Below, one piece after another: positions 38,636 through 47,795 of a DNA stretch of 64,000 nucleotides. The notes under the pieces were generated by a model, which did not search any database, was not told the DNA's origin, and saw only the letters and a list, made by a program, of their open reading frames with translations. Source of the stretch: a bacterium. Its GTDB lineage: Bacteria > Patescibacteriota > Microgenomatia > UBA1400 > UBA12108. The position numbers and the translations under genes were made by a program. Where the stretch lies: positions 14,754-78,753 of the forward strand of contig JAJYKS010000005.1 of NCBI GenBank assembly GCA_021788365.1. Reading direction: 5' to 3'. How positions within the stretch are numbered: position 1 is the stretch's first letter; the number at the start of each line of letters is the position of its first letter.

Positions 38636-40231
38636 ATGGACGGCATGGCAAGCGCGAAAAAATCTGCACATGTGACTCCGATTGAGAACTGGCCAAAGCT
38701 CTATCACGATATATTAAAAGTAAAAGATCCCACCAATCATGTGGGGGTGTGTACTCTTTGGACGGAGCGAAATGTTGTCGAAAAAATGATCGGCGACCTG
38801 CCGTATAACGTCATTGGCAATCTGTACAGCGCACAGGGGATAAACGCGATGATGCGCAACGTCTTTGCCAATCCCAATATTCGCACGATCGTCATATGGG
38901 GCAGTGAAATGTCTTTGTCTGGCCACAGCCTCCTCATGTTTATGAAAAACGGGGTGGACGAGAACCGAAAAATCATCAAGGGTCGCGGAGAAATAGAGGC
39001 GGAGATACCGGACGCGGCGATCGCCATGTTTCGCGAGCAGGTCGAGATAGTTGATTTACGCGGACGCACCAAAGACGAGCTCGTGAAAAAACTCGAGGAG
39101 CTCTCCAAAATCCACAAAGAACCATTCCTCCCCGCGCCGCGCGAGTTTCCCAAAGCGGAGCCAAAAGTAAACGTCTATCCGTCGGAGCAGACGGGTTTTT
39201 ACGTGCATGGCAAGACGGTGGCGCAGACCTGGCTGAAACTATTGAACGAAATCTATAAATACGGGCGGCCCAAACACACCCGATATAGCAAAGATAATTC
39301 GCTCAAAGAAATCCTCAACCTCACCGCGGTCGTTGAGGAAGAAGATCCCACGAGCGTATATTTCCCCGAGTATCTGCCGTTTGAGCGGAGCGAGCTCGAG
39401 GCGTACTATGCCGAGATCATGACCAGCCGCGAGGTACCTGGTGTCGCCTATAACTACGGGCGGCGAATGCGCCTCCACTTTGGCGTGGACCAGATACAGC
39501 AGATGAAAGAACTCCTTAAAAATCGGCCGGATAGCAAGAAAATGCTCGCCATCACCACCGACCCCAAACTGGACTGGAGCCGGGCCAACAACGGCGACAC
39601 GCCATGTTTGGTTATGGTCCTCGGGTCGGTGCAGGACAGCAAATTTTTCTTGACAGCTCACTTTCGTTCGCAAGACATGGTTCATGGCTGGCCGCGGAAT
39701 ACCTTTGCTCTGCGCAAGTTGCAGAAAGATATTGCCGACAGTGCGGGGTACGGCATGGGGCCGCTAACCATGATCACCCACAGCGCGCACATGTACAGCG
39801 ACGACTGGGAGCTTGTCGAAAACCTGCTTATGGACTGGTACGAAAAGGAGTCCGGCTACACCCCGGCGGTGCACTTTGATTTCGATAAGCGCGCGAACTT
39901 TGTCGTGGAAGTCATAGACGTGCAGGATGCTCAGGTGTGGCCGACATGGAGCTTGCGATATAAGGGCCAGCCGGTGGGATTGGCGGTCGCGAGAGAGCTG
40001 AAGCGGATGCCTCGGGAGGTGAAAAAACTGATCAGGGTGACATTGGCGGATCCGGATGGCGGTGCACCCTTGAAAGTTTTTGAGGGCAGGACCGCACAAG
40101 AGGTGGCTTGGCAGATAACGGATTGGGAGTACGTGAAGATCCCTGCACATGCGATGTATGTGGGGACGGAACTGCAGCGGGCAGAGGAGGCGATTGCGCG
40201 CGGCGAGGGGTACTCGCAAGATCCGGCCTAG
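38636..40231 (+). CDS. thyA: Thymidylate synthase (ThyA-fold) with ~230-aa N-terminal extension of unknown function
   Basis: ThyA motifs YNYGRRMR...GVDQIQQMKELLKNRPDSKKMLAITTDP; DTPCLVMVLGSVQDSKFFLTAHFRSQDMVHGWPRNTFALRKL (catalytic Cys); MITHSAHMY. The N-terminal 230 aa is not DHFR-like. Confidence 0.65.
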   Translation: MDGMASAKKSAHVTPIENWPKLYHDILKVKDPTNHVGVCTLWTERNVVEKMIGDLPYNVIGNLYSAQGINAMMRNVFANPNIRTIVIWGSEMSLSGHSLLMFMKNGVDENRKIIKGRGEIEAEIPDAAIAMFREQVEIVDLRGRTKDELVKKLEELSKIHKEPFLPAPREFPKAEPKVNVYPSEQTGFYVHGKTVAQTWLKLLNEIYKYGRPKHTRYSKDNSLKEILNLTAVVEEEDPTSVYFPEYLPFERSELEAYYAEIMTSREVPGVAYNYGRRMRLHFGVDQIQQMKELLKNRPDSKKMLAITTDPKLDWSRANNGDTPCLVMVLGSVQDSKFFLTAHFRSQDMVHGWPRNTFALRKLQKDIADSAGYGMGPLTMITHSAHMYSDDWELVENLLMDWYEKESGYTPAVHFDFDKRANFVVEVIDVQDAQVWPTWSLRYKGQPVGLAVARELKRMPREVKKLIRVTLADPDGGAPLKVFEGRTAQEVAWQITDWEYVKIPAHAMYVGTELQRAEEAIARGEGYSQDPA

Positions 40232-40996
40232 TTTACAAGGATGATTCCTGTACCCTTTAAGGTGGCTACTCTAAGACTAAGTATTTATTGCCGGACTTTA
40301 GATCGAGCGGCTCCTCGACAAAATGTTGGTACGAATTCTTGGGATTCGTTTTCGAAAAGTATGTGAGGATGTTTTCGGGATGTACCCAGGGTTGATGTAT
40401 ATAGCCTAGGTAGTTTTTGTAGCTTGAATACGGATAACCGGCTAATTTACAGGGATCATCCTTGTAAGATGCCAGTTTTAGGGGGTTGCGGTGGATATAT
40501 TTTGTGAGCCATAGAAATTGGTTTTCTTGCTCTACCATTACTGCCTTGTAGATGCCTTGGAATAAATGCCCGACTCGGGAGTATTTTTTATTGAAATACA
40601 TGGAGTAGCGAGTTCCTAGTGAGCGCATAAAACGGTTCATGGAGTCCTTGTTTACTTGTCGTAACAGAAGATGAAAGTGGTTGGGCATGAGGCAGTAGGA
40701 GACGAGCTCGATAGTTTTTTCGTGGTTATTTGGTTGGCGAGAGGGGGCGTAGATTACTTTTTGGATATCTGACAGGGATGATCCTTGTAAAGTGCGGGCA
40801 AGGCGATGGTCTACTGGTTTTGATGGGGTAAGGTAGAGCTTAAGACACCCTAGGAAAGTAACGTAATCTTTTTCGTCGAGAAAAATATCGCGTTTCTCCA
40901 CCCCGCGGTTGTAGATGTGATAATAGGTGTGATCGACGTAGGTTTTTTGACTGTTCTTTGGTGGCATGATAGTTTACAGGGATCATCCCTGTAAAC
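40232..40996. mobile_element. RAYT (REP-associated tyrosine transposase) unit with flanking REP palindromes
   Basis: The Y1-HuH transposase gene is flanked by TTACAAGGATGATTCCTGTA (40233-40252) and the perfect palindrome TTTACAGGGATCATCCCTGTAAA (40974-40996). Further copies occur inside the gene (40447-40467, 40771-40792) and at 45734-45755. Confidence 0.7.
40266..40967 (-). CDS. IS200/IS605-family Y1 (HuH) transposase, RAYT-type
   Basis: YHIYNRG...YCLMPNHFHLL (HuH)...YIHRNP plus a C-terminal extension with the YPYSSY motif typical of REP-associated tyrosine transposases. 233 aa. Confidence 0.75.
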   Translation of the reverse strand: MPPKNSQKTYVDHTYYHIYNRGVEKRDIFLDEKDYVTFLGCLKLYLTPSKPVDHRLARTLQGSSLSDIQKVIYAPSRQPNNHEKTIELVSYCLMPNHFHLLLRQVNKDSMNRFMRSLGTRYSMYFNKKYSRVGHLFQGIYKAVMVEQENQFLWLTKYIHRNPLKLASYKDDPCKLAGYPYSSYKNYLGYIHQPWVHPENILTYFSKTNPKNSYQHFVEEPLDLKSGNKYLVLE

Positions 40997-41014
40997 TATG
41001 GTATAGTCTTTACG

Positions 41015-41674
41015 ATGAGTGATGTCAAACTACATAATAAATTTGCGAGTATAAAGGCGGTGGGGTTTGATGTGGACGGGACACTGTACCACTCCTCCGA
41101 AGAACTACAGTCGGCGGTGGGGATGGATATCATCGCCGAGGCGGCCAGGCGGCTGGGGAAGCAGCCCGACGATATCGTCGAGGAGTATCTTGCCAGGCGG
41201 GAGGAACTTCGCAGCAATACGATGACACTGAACAGTTTTGGCCTACCTGGGGAGGAGATATTTCAGAAGATTTGGGATGAGATACCTATTGAAAAGTACG
41301 TAAAGCGCGATGCGAAACTCGTCACGCTTATGGGCGGGCTGCGGAAGCAATACCGATTGTTTATTATATCGAACGGGAGGGGTGAGCAAATTGAGCGGAA
41401 ATTCCGGCATCTCGGGCTGCGGCCAGCGTGGTTTGACCCATTTATTTCTTGTTATGACCACGGGTGGGTGAAGCCGGAGCCGGCACCATTCCTCGCCGCG
41501 ATCGAAGCTCTGAAATTAAAACCAGAGGAGATTGTGTACGTCGGTGACCGGACGGATGTGGATGTGGATGCTGCAAAAGCCGTCGGCATGAGGACGATAT
41601 TCGTGGGTGGAGAATACGCAGGTGCGGACGCGTCTTGCGAGACGGTGTATGATGTGGGACTAATGCTCGAGTAG
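41015..41674 (+). CDS. HAD-superfamily hydrolase
   Basis: Motif I FDVDGTLY, motif III/IV region (VGDRTDVDVDAAKAVGM). Confidence 0.8.
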   Translation: MSDVKLHNKFASIKAVGFDVDGTLYHSSEELQSAVGMDIIAEAARRLGKQPDDIVEEYLARREELRSNTMTLNSFGLPGEEIFQKIWDEIPIEKYVKRDAKLVTLMGGLRKQYRLFIISNGRGEQIERKFRHLGLRPAWFDPFISCYDHGWVKPEPAPFLAAIEALKLKPEEIVYVGDRTDVDVDAAKAVGMRTIFVGGEYAGADASCETVYDVGLMLE

Positions 41675-45329: not shown

Positions 45330-45620
45330 TTAAAGAGCTGGTTGCGGAATGTCTAGAACACCGTAAAGATGTTTTAGCTGGCGTTGCAATTTCGGTACGT
45401 CTTCACCTAGATCGTGGTGGAGCTGCGAATGGGCAGCATCATCCTCGGCCTTTTTGTTAATGGCAGCTAGTAACTCTAGTTTGTCTGCAACCATTTCTTC
45501 TTTTGAAGGTAGTTGTTTGACTAAATCTGCGATTGCCTGACCAAGTTCTTCTTTGGTGACGAAAACTTCTTTCATCTCTTCAACCAACCTTGTGCGATCA
45601 GATTTGGTGAGCGTCATAGC
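45330..45620 (-). CDS. Hypothetical protein (~96 aa from internal Met)
   Basis: ORF 45330-45761. The N-terminal part only translates the REP palindrome at 45734-45755, so the start was placed at MTLTKSDRTRL. Confidence 0.35.
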   Translation of the reverse strand, partial: AMTLTKSDRTRLVEEMKEVFVTKEELGQAIADLVKQLPSKEEMVADKLELLAAINKKAEDDAAHSQLHHDLGEDVPKLQRQLKHLYGVLDIPQPAL

Positions 45621-45733
45621 TGTAGTAAAGCATTTTAAATAGGCGTTTGCAACGCGGCAAACGGTATCAGATACCCGCCTACGAGGACAGTCCTCGCAGG
45701 CTCGGATACCTGCTACCTGATTAGCGGCACATC

Positions 45734-45755
45734 TTACAGGGATGATCCCTGTAAA
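45734..45755. repeat. REP palindrome TTACAGGGATGATCCCTGTAAA (orphan copy)
   Basis: Same palindrome family as the RAYT-flanking REPs 4.7 kb upstream. Confidence 0.75.
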
Positions 45756-45809: not shown

Positions 45810-47795
45810 TTATTTTTGGGAACTAATTAAAAGAATATCTCCAGGGTAATTGGCGGCCTTTAGTGTTTGAACGTCTTCTGAGCTTTTTACGATAATCGGT
45901 GCGGTACTTTGGACGATCACTCCGGTGAAGTGGAGTACTGGAGTCAAATAAGGCTGGGCAGCATTTACAATAGCCGATAGGTAGCTGTCGGTATCGGTAG
46001 CGGTTGTTATTACTGCCCCGGTAAAGCCGAGGTCGGCAAGCGCTTTAGATTTCTCTTGCGTGGCGGCTGCGGCTTCGCCTGCCGACTTGAAAAACTCGCG
46101 GGTAGGAGCAAGTACCCAGGGGATGGTATTGCCCGTACCTCCGTCTTGGAAAGTAATTATAAGTGTATGGGGAAGTGACGACCTGAGTTTTTGGAGCAAT
46201 GATTGTAGATCTTTTGAATTTTGGAAGTTCTCCTTGGTTACTAGTACTGCATATGGATGGCTAGCAGCTAATTTCGTGAGGAAGGCTGGATCGTTGGTGT
46301 CGAAAGTAAGGACTGATTTTACGGATCCTATAGTGTCATTGCCAAGGTAATACAGACTAAGGTATTCGTTTGTATAAGGCGGAACTATCTCTCCTGGCGA
46401 TAACTGACGGCCAAACGTTTGTGGTTTGGCTTTTTCCGGTATAAGGCTTTGTAAGTAAGGTAATTCACCGCCAGCGAGCGAGCGAGAGAATTGCTCATCT
46501 ACGAGGATGTGGGTGATTGGGGGCATGTTGGAGCGGACAGTTTGATCAGACTCGACTTTTTGGTACCACTCAATCGTCCTCTTTGGATTATTTAAGTACG
46601 TGTCAAGATATACATATTCAGGGGCGACGATTGCAGAACTTGCGGGTAGTTCTTTGAGTGCTACAAGGCTCTGTAGCTGGGGTGCGGTAGCATTGGTAGT
46701 AAAGATATATGTGGCCGTCGCGCCGTTGTAGGTAAGCAGAGAGGCAAGAAGAAGATAGGGAATTGCGGGGAGGTTGGTTTTTTGTGCGAGGCCCTTTACT
46801 GCAAGGGTTATGTCTAAAGCTAGGAGTGGTAAGAGCGGGATCACATAGAAGTCGTAGATTTGGCCGCCGCGGGCGAGGAAGACAAGGAAAAAAGGGGTAA
46901 ATAGGGATAGGATTTTGTATTTTAGTTCAGTTTGAGGTAGACATAGCCAGATTGTGGCGATAACTCCAAGAATAGGTAGGAACGGGTCGATTCCGAGCCA
47001 TATGGGGAGCATAGTGCGAAACTGAGAACCGACCTGCCAGAAGAATTTACCTGTCCCCCTGCTTGCCTGAAACGCGATAGTTCCTAGGAGGGATACCTGG
47101 CCTGTGTGCGGAACAAGTTCGCCTTTTAAGAGTGCGAGAAGGGGGAAGAAGGCGAGAAGAAAGGAGGCAGTTAATAAGCTTATCATGAGAGCGTATCGAC
47201 GATTGAAGTTGTCTTTGTTGAGGGTCCAAACCAACAGTAAATAGGGGGGGAGGTAAAAAAGTAGCGATTCTTTTGTCAAAACTGCGACGGCCATGGATAG
47301 GGCGGAAAAAGAAATATACTTGATCCGTTGTGGATCTTTGACGAGAAGTAACAGGCTAAGGAGCAGCCAGAAAACGGCGAGATTGTCGAGAAGTACCATC
47401 CGACCAAAGGTCAAGGTGAGAGGGCTTGTTATAAAAAGCGTGGTGGCAATGAGTCCGTACTTAACTGAGTGAGTAAATTGACGAGTAAGTGAGTAGAGCA
47501 ATGTGGCTGTACCTGCAAGCGCTAGGCCCGTAAAAACCCGCACAGAGAGGACGCTACTTCCGAAGAATGTTGCTACGCTGGCGAGGCGCTCCCAGAGACC
47601 GATTTGCAACCAACCAAGGGGAAAGTGGTCGTACCAATAGGTATAGGGGCCGAGCTTGCCAAGGAACGTGAGCCAGTAGGCTTGGGAAACGTAGATACCC
47701 TCGTCGCCCACCATTTTGGGAAAATGAGCAATGTTATAGAGCGCGAGCGCGGAGGCTGTGACAAAAACCACTAAGACGAGAAGCCACTTTTTCAT
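45810..47795 (-). CDS. Polytopic membrane glycosyltransferase, GT39/PMT-ArnT-like (GT-C fold)
   Basis: ~11 N-terminal TM helices with an early DE-containing loop (MVGDEGIYVSQAYW), and a large C-terminal extracytoplasmic domain. Confidence 0.65.
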   Translation of the reverse strand: MKKWLLVLVVFVTASALALYNIAHFPKMVGDEGIYVSQAYWLTFLGKLGPYTYWYDHFPLGWLQIGLWERLASVATFFGSSVLSVRVFTGLALAGTATLLYSLTRQFTHSVKYGLIATTLFITSPLTLTFGRMVLLDNLAVFWLLLSLLLLVKDPQRIKYISFSALSMAVAVLTKESLLFYLPPYLLLVWTLNKDNFNRRYALMISLLTASFLLAFFPLLALLKGELVPHTGQVSLLGTIAFQASRGTGKFFWQVGSQFRTMLPIWLGIDPFLPILGVIATIWLCLPQTELKYKILSLFTPFFLVFLARGGQIYDFYVIPLLPLLALDITLAVKGLAQKTNLPAIPYLLLASLLTYNGATATYIFTTNATAPQLQSLVALKELPASSAIVAPEYVYLDTYLNNPKRTIEWYQKVESDQTVRSNMPPITHILVDEQFSRSLAGGELPYLQSLIPEKAKPQTFGRQLSPGEIVPPYTNEYLSLYYLGNDTIGSVKSVLTFDTNDPAFLTKLAASHPYAVLVTKENFQNSKDLQSLLQKLRSSLPHTLIITFQDGGTGNTIPWVLAPTREFFKSAGEAAAATQEKSKALADLGFTGAVITTATDTDSYLSAIVNAAQPYLTPVLHFTGVIVQSTAPIIVKSSEDVQTLKAANYPGDILLISSQK

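Follow-up and report, generated by a model that had tools for sequence, protein, structure and literature searches.

A 64-kb stretch of a Microgenomatia genome (Patescibacteriota; assembly GCA_021788365.1, contig JAJYKS010000005.1; 64,000 nt, hereafter the window) carries one gene for a RAYT-like HUH/Y1 endonuclease, together with copies of a single short palindrome that lie on both sides of this gene, twice within its coding sequence and once elsewhere as an orphan. We consider it likely that the gene and its palindromes constitute a REPtron-like unit, i.e. one enzyme gene with its cognate DNA stem-loop, reminiscent of the repetitive extragenic palindromic (REP) systems and belonging to a RAYT-like HUH/Y1 clade specific to the Candidate Phyla Radiation (CPR). 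The hairpin is built of a 9–11 bp stem with a conserved RGG/CCY top and a variable 5-nt loop. The evidence, directly observed, comprises the anatomy of the locus, the conservation of its layout across the family, the co-variation of the copies within each genome, their independence from the reading frame, the conservation of synonymous sites, the concerted change of the loops and the location of breakpoints.

Anatomy of the locus

The gene (40266..40967, minus strand) is the single long open reading frame (ORF) of the region and encodes 233 aa. Its upstream hairpin (UP, 40969..40999, core 40973-40995), detected by both pattern and palindrome searches, is a perfect 31-nt palindrome separated from the ATG by 1 nt, within the 47-nt gap to a divergent HAD hydrolase gene. 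The downstream hairpin (DOWN, 40231..40253) is degenerate, with 2 mismatches in its 17-nt core (40235-40251); it starts 13 nt past the stop codon, and its far end, 40231, is the last stop-codon base of a convergent 531-aa gene (38636..40231). Inside the gene, internal hairpin 1 (I1, 40769..40791) encodes T-LQGSSLS-D in a disordered insertion that separates helix 1 from the HUH strand, and internal hairpin 2 (I2, 40446..40468) encodes S-YKDDPCK in the linker between the YIHRNP and YPYSSY motifs. Read on the gene strand, TLQGSSLSD and SYKDDPCK are stop-free and use two different frames of the palindrome. The orphan copy (45733..45755) is intergenic, 55 nt past the stop of a 661-aa gene (45810..47795, minus strand).

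The palindrome TTTACAGGGATSATCCCTGTAAA has five sites in the window against 0 expected, four at the gene and one orphan. Allowing up to 3 mismatches, the pattern TTTACAGGGATCATCCCTGTAAA matched at 40446-40468, 40769-40791, 40973-40995 and 45733-45755, and gave zero matches across 100 shuffles. A search with the 17-nt core additionally recovered the degenerate copy at 40235-40251, and a 21-nt search with up to 6 mismatches over the whole 64 kb returned the five sites only. These results bear out most of an earlier note on this DNA, which had described a HUH-Y1 gene flanked by palindromes, one of them degenerate, with an orphan copy and two further copies within the gene that lie in different frames and leave the ORF intact. 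The YPYSSY motif, which this note had placed at the C-terminus, spans residues 178-183 of 233 and is not terminal.

Predicted folding of UP reached -12.7 kcal/mol as single-stranded DNA (z -6.7) and -19.8 kcal/mol as RNA, where the stem abuts the AUG. As single-stranded DNA, I2 reached -7.1 kcal/mol and the orphan -10.8 kcal/mol (z -4.5). Comparison of folding energies showed no preference of the hairpins for either strand. When the window was scanned for Rfam families and tRNAs, one tRNA-Trp only was returned, far from the locus, and the hairpin corresponds to no known RNA family in the Rfam scan. A role as intrinsic terminator was rejected, with 0 terminator-like sites in 39900-41300 and T-runs absent after the hairpins. 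Within 40966-41002, the TTTACA arms of UP resemble -35 boxes in either direction, 18 nt separating them from TATCAT on the minus strand and from TATGGT on the plus strand. They were rejected as promoter of the RAYT-like gene because the -10 box would overlap its ATG; it is possible that the plus-strand box serves the HAD gene at 41015, whose leader would then be very short.

A four-site layout across related loci

Related loci were collected from metagenomes (80 loci), then from seven further close relatives, and palindromes were scanned over each gene and 200 nt on either side. Most loci harbor palindromes of common build, whose letters are specific to each genome and repeated at four fixed places: UP at 25–70 nt before the start, I1 at about nt +146 to +190, I2 at about nt +435 to +510, and DOWN at the stop or just past it. 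Four copies of one sequence were for instance recovered in L005 (CCTGCAGGGCCAGGCCCTGCAGG), L016 (CTTTCGGGAGACTCCCGAAAG), L038 (CCTGCGAGGAGACTCCTCGCAGG) and L027 (TGACAGGGTCTCGCCCTGTCA). At least two copies were present in 55 of about 74 related loci, with 57 instances of UP, 25 of I1, 26 of I2 and 53 of DOWN; both internal copies were found in 14 of these 55 loci, one in 23 and none in 18. The internal palindromes highlighted by the earlier note are kept in orthologs, at the DNA level.

The internal copies follow the flanks of their own locus. With the palindrome of each locus defined from its flanks alone, the flank-defined 17-mer (at most 2 mismatches) was found in the coding interior of its own gene in 30 of 52 loci, compared with 11 of 2652 cross-locus pairings.

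The median spacings over the 55 loci were 210 nt between UP and I1, 305 nt between I1 and I2 and 215 nt between I2 and DOWN, the two outer intervals being nearly equal. Several distant orthologs (L044, L053, L057/L073, L059 and L063) display paired adjacent inverted hairpins upstream of the gene, forming compound palindromes of 30–42 nt that resemble REPIN doublets. At two loci (L096 and P0004), the ORF runs into the downstream hairpin and acquires a tail such as TLQGSSL or TLRGSSL, and the 3' hairpin can therefore turn coding. The hairpin pattern also occurs in two metagenome-assembled genomes (MAGs) labelled "uncultured Pseudomonadales", CAZBML01 (L087 and L096) and that of L083; CAZBML01 also holds a 78%-identical copy of this CPR-type gene, and the Pseudomonadales labels look doubtful.

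Conservation of the DNA palindrome and concerted change of its loop

The internal copies are read in two frames at I1 (20 and 5 loci) and in all three frames at I2 (11, 10 and 5 loci), where they encode unrelated peptides such as YKDDPCK, PAGPGPAG, PARSDLAG and SKGQAFQ. Because all three frames are in use, the peptide is not the conserved unit, and the comparison of sequences indicates that what is conserved is the DNA palindrome. The LQGxSLK motif and the invariant Gly62 arise because the stem top RGG...CCY, with its conserved GG, fixes them. The earlier note had seen REPs domesticated as coding sequence, which places the emphasis wrongly, since all three frames are used and it is the palindrome that is kept. 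Among eight close relatives, whose proteins are 70–79% identical to the query, invariant residues had identical codons in 126 of 140 pairs in the hairpin columns (90%), compared with 1523 of 3220 elsewhere in the gene (47%).

Close relatives have a common stem, TTTACAGGG/CCCTGTAAA, around five central bases that vary: ATGAT in the window, L112 and L116, AGACT in L001, ACGGA in L113 and CCAGG in L114. Each genome uses one loop at every position, orphans included (at -6194 in L112 and -515 in L114). The 3' arm of I1 is invariably TGTCAG, as TGTAAA would create an in-frame TAA stop. The retention of TGTCAG while the loop shifts in concert argues against wholesale replacement of the element. The loops ACGGA, TTTCT and TCTCT are non-palindromic, and a stem-loop therefore fits better than a symmetric duplex site. 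The orientation of the four copies varies between genomes, without fixed arrangement. The stem feet are mostly TAC/TAG...GTA/CTA on both sides, within an extended palindrome; a one-sided 5' GTAG tag is generally absent from the copies of the close relatives, a true 5' GTAG occurring in DOWN of L115 only.

Two loci, L096 and L115, are mixed, their sites acting as two pairs, UP with I1 and I2 with DOWN. The UP and I1 loops are the same in L096 and near-identical in L115, in opposite orientation (TCTCT or TTTCT versus AGAGA), and I2 and DOWN hold a second, ATGAT-type loop (ATGAT with ATCAT or ATCAA).

The RAYT-like enzyme

The motifs of the 233-aa protein are HFH at residues 97-99, YIHRNP at 157-162 with the catalytic Tyr157, and YPYSSY. 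Residues H97, F98, H99, Y157 and N161-P162 are invariant across an alignment of 30 homologs with 54–78% identity to the query. The Pfam domain Y1_Tnp ("Transposase IS200 like") covers residues 82-161 (E 3.8e-11), and the best-scoring family is NCBIfam REP_Tyr_transpos (NF047646), at 42.9 bits over residues 81-165 only; the IS200 transposase model NF033573 scored 14.1 bits and did not reach its cut-off of 55. The AlphaFold (AF2) model (pLDDT 74.8) adopts a Y1 fold, in which residues 53-77 form a low-confidence loop (pLDDT <50) holding I1. Foldseek against the PDB ranked first 4ER8, the E. coli RayT with its REP hairpin (E 8.5e-5, TM 0.65 on the target), then ISDra2 and IS608 TnpA, the top 20 being all RayT, ISDra2, IS608 or other IS200-family transposases. 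E. coli RayT could be aligned pairwise over residues 83-183, which comprise the HUH strand, WQxRF/FQGIY and the YIxxNPxK...(W/Y)P(F/Y)S(S/T)(F/Y) tail, where I2 coincides with a 4-residue gap. A single-protein sequence search of the PDB gave noise only.

By fold and by family-model score, the protein is partly supported as a Y1 HUH enzyme nearer to RAYT than to IS200 TnpA. The RAYT identity proposed by the earlier note thus stood as regards the top fold and the higher family score, and did not as regards the curated cut-off and the profile match, which is to ISDra2 alone. Since the protein falls below the curated RAYT cut-off and its only profile match, to ISDra2 TnpA, is weak, its sequence places it as a RAYT-like enzyme of a separate clade and not as a RAYT as filed. 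This clade is large: of 8,000 scored candidates drawn from 90%-identity clusters, more than 7,800 reach E <= 1e-5, all of about 220–235 aa, and a 50%-identity representative library contains 307 clusters at E <= 1e-30. The named sources of homologs are Microgenomates, Patescibacteria, Beckwithbacteria or unclassified "bacterium".

Copies outside the gene

Orphans are scarce, with one in the window and seven in 339 kb of related flanks, or about 1 per 48 kb, and high-copy dispersal of the repeat was observed neither in the window, nor in the related flanks, nor in one Woesebacteria genome. The dispersed REP family announced by the earlier note is therefore only weakly borne out: orphans do exist, at a density well below that of classical REPs. 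Several orphans of other loci lie inside long ORFs. One of them lies in a LysRS-like gene beside the RAYT-like gene of L114, which is 4 aa longer than its solved homolog.

A genome collection, in which the source genome of the window is not included, was scanned with TNACARGGATSATCCYTGTNA. About 17 single matches in unrelated genomes were disregarded as being at chance level. In a single genome, that of Candidatus Woesebacteria RIFCSPLOWO2_01_FULL_39_10, seven copies of TGACAAGGATSATCCTTGTCA were detected on five contigs (L081, L084, L092, L094, L099, L100 and L107). All seven lie within long ORFs, in one frame reading (L/M/V)T(R/G)(M/I)I(L/P)V, and these ORFs include endonuclease III, glutamate dehydrogenase and the C-terminal part of transketolase. 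Compared with solved homologs, the first two are unchanged in length and align gap-free, and the third has gained 1 aa. A 21–23-nt element that adds 0–4 codons would not be a simple insertion. Within the RAYT-like gene itself, I2 adds 6 aa compared with the homologs P0023 and P0027 and 4 aa compared with E. coli RayT.

The window also contains, 32 nt from the orphan, a second REP-like palindrome of a different type, CCTGCGAGGACTGTCCTCGTAGG (45678..45700; fold -11.4 kcal/mol). It is 1 nt away from the palindrome flanking a 55%-identical RAYT ortholog of another metagenome (L004), which suggests that the genome has another RAYT paralog or hairpin family, with different hairpin types clustered in one intergenic spot.

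Breaks and strain differences at hairpins

Several alleles are interrupted at the hairpins. In L117, similarity to all orthologs starts 2–4 nt before the I1 stem, at its 5' foot, and the upstream ~550 nt, in which a small ORF for a membrane protein lies, are unrelated. Beyond them follows a HAD gene orthologous to the neighbour in the window, so that the contig is no chimera. In L048, the ORF terminates inside the cognate hairpin straight after YIHR and the C-terminal third is absent. Among 150 listed cluster representatives, nine lose the query match at residues 161-167, i.e. at I2 (P0157, P0165, P0170, P0179, P0180, P0221, P0223, P0243 and P0268), and the match of P0172 begins at query residue 59, at I1. 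From these alignments, the representatives ending at I2 or starting at I1 are suggestive only, of breaks or stops at hairpins or of contig ends. P0083, considered as an N-terminally truncated allele, was discarded as a gene-calling artefact, the full gene being present.

Strains also differ at the hairpin feet. Compared with the window (40962-41006), two strains that are 97% identical to it, L109 (9969-10000) and L111, carry CTGTAAA twice in tandem, a 7-nt duplication, where the upstream hairpin has its 3' foot. Their downstream copy is better preserved than that of the window, and shows a similar partial duplication of an arm (TACAGGG TACAGGG). The orphan at 45733 is absent from L109 (GCA_021839925.1), and collinearity between this genome and the window ends near 45330, about 400 nt away; the orphan therefore adjoins a strain-variable region.

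Genomic context and inheritance

The neighbours of the gene are common within subclades and differ between them, with the HAD hydrolase in the window, L117 and L118, TatC-TatA in L112/L113, and an AsxRS-like gene and MreB in L114/L115. The window holds one gene copy, and homolog clusters occur on 1–3 contigs each. Because neighbours are kept within subclades, these data fit a single-copy, mostly vertically inherited gene and not an active insertion sequence (IS), as far as gene order can tell.

Discussion

Functioning of the unit

In the REPtron-like unit that we favour, the enzyme would bind its hairpin in single-stranded DNA and nick it, in the manner of E. coli RayT on REPs, as its family and the breakpoints suggest. 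The placement of the hairpin is unusual: besides the two ends of the gene, it occupies two coding spots that tolerate it, namely the disordered insertion that follows helix 1 and the linker behind the helix of the catalytic Tyr. The copies of a genome could be held alike by enzyme-mediated cleavage and rejoining or by short-patch conversion between copies; alternatively, selection to remain recognisable as the specificity of the enzyme drifts may account for their likeness. Whole-element re-insertion fits poorly at I1. Expression may be self-limited, as a hairpin abuts the start codon and the mRNA bears hairpins. In IS200, a 5' stem-loop limits translation, and the start-codon hairpin probably has the same effect here; the translation-blocking stem-loop of IS200 is also brought up in PMC3733652. 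The gene would occasionally break at its hairpins, and copies may be seeded elsewhere at a low rate, often within other genes.

Alternative explanations

An ordinary autonomous IS200/IS605-type element, whose palindromes would be the left-end (LE) and right-end (RE) structures, would account for a compact unit of ~770 bp with hairpins at both ends and four of the five window copies at the gene, and it agrees with the Pfam name and with ISDra2 TnpA as sole sequence-profile match in the PDB. Nevertheless, the data contradict it and we judge it highly improbable: the IS200 equivalog model remains at 14.1 bits against 55, RayT is the top fold match, the 64 kb contain one gene copy and homolog clusters are limited to 1–3 contigs each, with neighbours kept within subclades (L112/L113 and L114/L115). 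Moreover, a single symmetric hairpin occupies both ends without distinct LE and RE, hairpins also exist as orphans without a gene, and a model of IS ends has no room for internal copies. The earlier note had opposed to its own proposal this very case of simple IS200/IS605 ends, which does not hold, the same hairpin being found at the ends, inside the gene and as orphans. The reduction of the internal copies to chance or to a by-product of conserved peptides (LQGxSLK and YKDDPCK) is also contradicted and retains hardly any plausibility, despite an LQG that is widely conserved and a G62 that is invariant in the protein alignment: orthologs differ in the frame in which they read one and the same DNA palindrome, it tracks its own flanks (30/52 versus 11/2652), its synonymous sites are kept (90% versus 47%), and shuffles never match the observed counts.

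Two other explanations give the hairpin a regulatory function, and explain less than a REPtron-like unit. The palindromes could be duplex operators through which a dimeric regulator, be it the protein or some host factor, controls this gene and a few others, involving no cleavage or mobility. Near-perfect palindromes down to the centre in many genomes would suit such operators, as would the overlap of UP with the promoter/start region of two divergent genes, its -35-like TTTACA arms on both strands, and the co-variation of protein and palindrome expected of a co-evolving operator–regulator pair. However, several genomes have non-palindromic 5-nt centres (ACGGA, TTTCT and TCTCT), copies are found in either orientation, the catalytic HUH and Tyr never vary, an operator would be oddly located at the 3' end of the gene or in the interiors of unrelated housekeeping genes, and the breakpoints and foot duplications at hairpins suggest an action on DNA, so that we find this explanation rather unlikely. 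The hairpins could otherwise be RNA elements acting on mRNA stability or translation, linked to the enzyme by expression control alone. This would agree with a 14-bp stem that finishes 1–5 nt before the AUG and resembles the translation-blocking 5' stem-loop of IS200, and with four gene copies all located in or beside the transcript. We nonetheless hold it for very unlikely: folding energies have no strand bias, the mismatches of internal copies on the sense strand are A.C rather than G.U, both orientations are found among the copies and both strands are used in other genes, and an RNA function alone leaves unexplained a sequence that is genome-specific and identical at all sites.

The REPtron-like unit thus remains our preferred explanation, and several observations weigh against it. 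Beyond the gene, copy number is very low in the window and in the related flanks, no RAYT gene lies near the Woesebacteria copies of TGACAAGGATSATCCTTGTCA within those loci, and the tested intragenic copies lengthen their genes by 0, 0, +1 and +4 aa and not by the 7–8 of a plain insertion, which simple cut-and-paste does not explain. Flanking copies only are found in 18 of the 55 loci, and in the window both I1 and DOWN are eroded, with folding energies of -1.5 to -3.7 kcal/mol, no better than shuffles. The truncated alleles are represented by single metagenomic contigs each. As for the protein, the curated cut-off of REP_Tyr_transpos, 80 bits, is missed (42.9), the sole match of its sequence profile in the PDB, ISDra2 TnpA, is weak (E 0.0045), and its binding and cutting of the hairpin are presumed from its family and the breakpoints.

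A more speculative explanation, to which we attach a limited probability, is that hairpins were overwritten onto existing sequence by an enzyme-driven conversion, and not inserted like a transposon. The RAYT-like nuclease would nick hairpin-like sites, and the lesion would be repaired or rejoined from another copy. Such overwriting would result in a loop common to all copies of a genome, and in copies within housekeeping genes with little or no change of length. It would also result in four copies within and around the enzyme's own gene, the DNA nearest to its synthesis, at the only places where they are tolerable.

Implications

To our knowledge, the role of RAYTs and the origin and homogeneity of REP families have remained unsolved since the 1980s–2010s, and a transposition mechanism was never demonstrated. 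If overwriting were true, it would define a self-referential "sequence-writing" system, widespread in the CPR, and a direct model for the creation and homogenisation of REP families. The enzyme's own gene offers a natural reporter for these questions, as it carries two recognition hairpins in coding sequence, where protein constraint, frame and stop avoidance can separate whole-element replacement, short-patch conversion and point mutation; the TGTCAG kept in I1 during the concerted change of loop already counts against the first of them. Our results also extend RAYT/REP-like systems to the Candidate Phyla Radiation, and indicate that short palindromes can occupy housekeeping genes at almost no cost in length. 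For genome annotation, they imply that invariant "protein motifs" of this family, such as the Gly of LQG, are imposed by DNA. The literature that could be searched contained, as far as we found, no mention of RAYT/REP in the CPR, of repeats lying within the coding sequence of a RAYT, or of a four-site layout kept between genomes.

Comparison with known systems

One of the closest known systems is the E. coli RayT (TnpA-REP), or REPtron (PDB 4ER8; PMC3479197; PMC3733652), which has in common with the CPR unit a Y1 HUH enzyme with one Tyr, apparently in single copy, the NPxK...(W/Y)P(F/Y)S(S/T)(F/Y) tail, the top structural match, and its own palindromes on both sides of the gene and elsewhere in the genome. 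Nevertheless, the CPR protein exceeds E. coli RayT by 68 aa, having a disordered insertion and an extended C-terminal part. E. coli REPs number in the hundreds and bear a 5' GTAG tag, like the GTAG-REP superfamily with its one-sided tag at the 5' foot of the repeat (PMC3733652), whereas here copies occur about once per 48 kb with (C/G)TA(C/G) feet on both sides. The rayT gene of E. coli K-12 has REP-rich flanks, yet no 11-mer is common to these flanks and the coding sequence, and it holds no internal REP.

REPIN-RAYT systems of Pseudomonas and enterobacteria consist of vertically inherited, single-copy RAYTs, each with a co-evolving repeat family (PMC3116915, PMC5581495), and the inverted hairpin doublets found here upstream of distant orthologs (L044, L053, L059, L063 and L073) are alike. 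The 16-mer flanking RAYTs of groups 1 and 4 occurs in only about 12–14 copies (PMC3116915, PMC5581495). Coding-sequence repeats, the four-site layout and CPR hosts are unlike these systems, with no counterpart found in the literature searched. TnpA enzymes of IS200, IS608 and ISDra2 likewise have a Y1 HUH fold and subterminal DNA hairpins recognised in single-stranded DNA, but these elements are mobile, occur in multiple copies and have left and right ends that differ from each other, and their proteins are shorter and devoid of the NP...YPxSS tail.

Finally, intragenic REPs and the palindromic elements of Rickettsia are located in frame within functional genes, often of DNA metabolism, and related species sometimes have them at a common site (PMC3733652). 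Both are described as insertions that lengthen assorted genes by 20–30 or more residues (PMC3733652), while the copies in other genes described here add 0–4 aa. The CPR unit further differs from both in that the host gene is that of the cognate enzyme itself, two internal sites are conserved across a large family, and the copies co-vary with the flanks.

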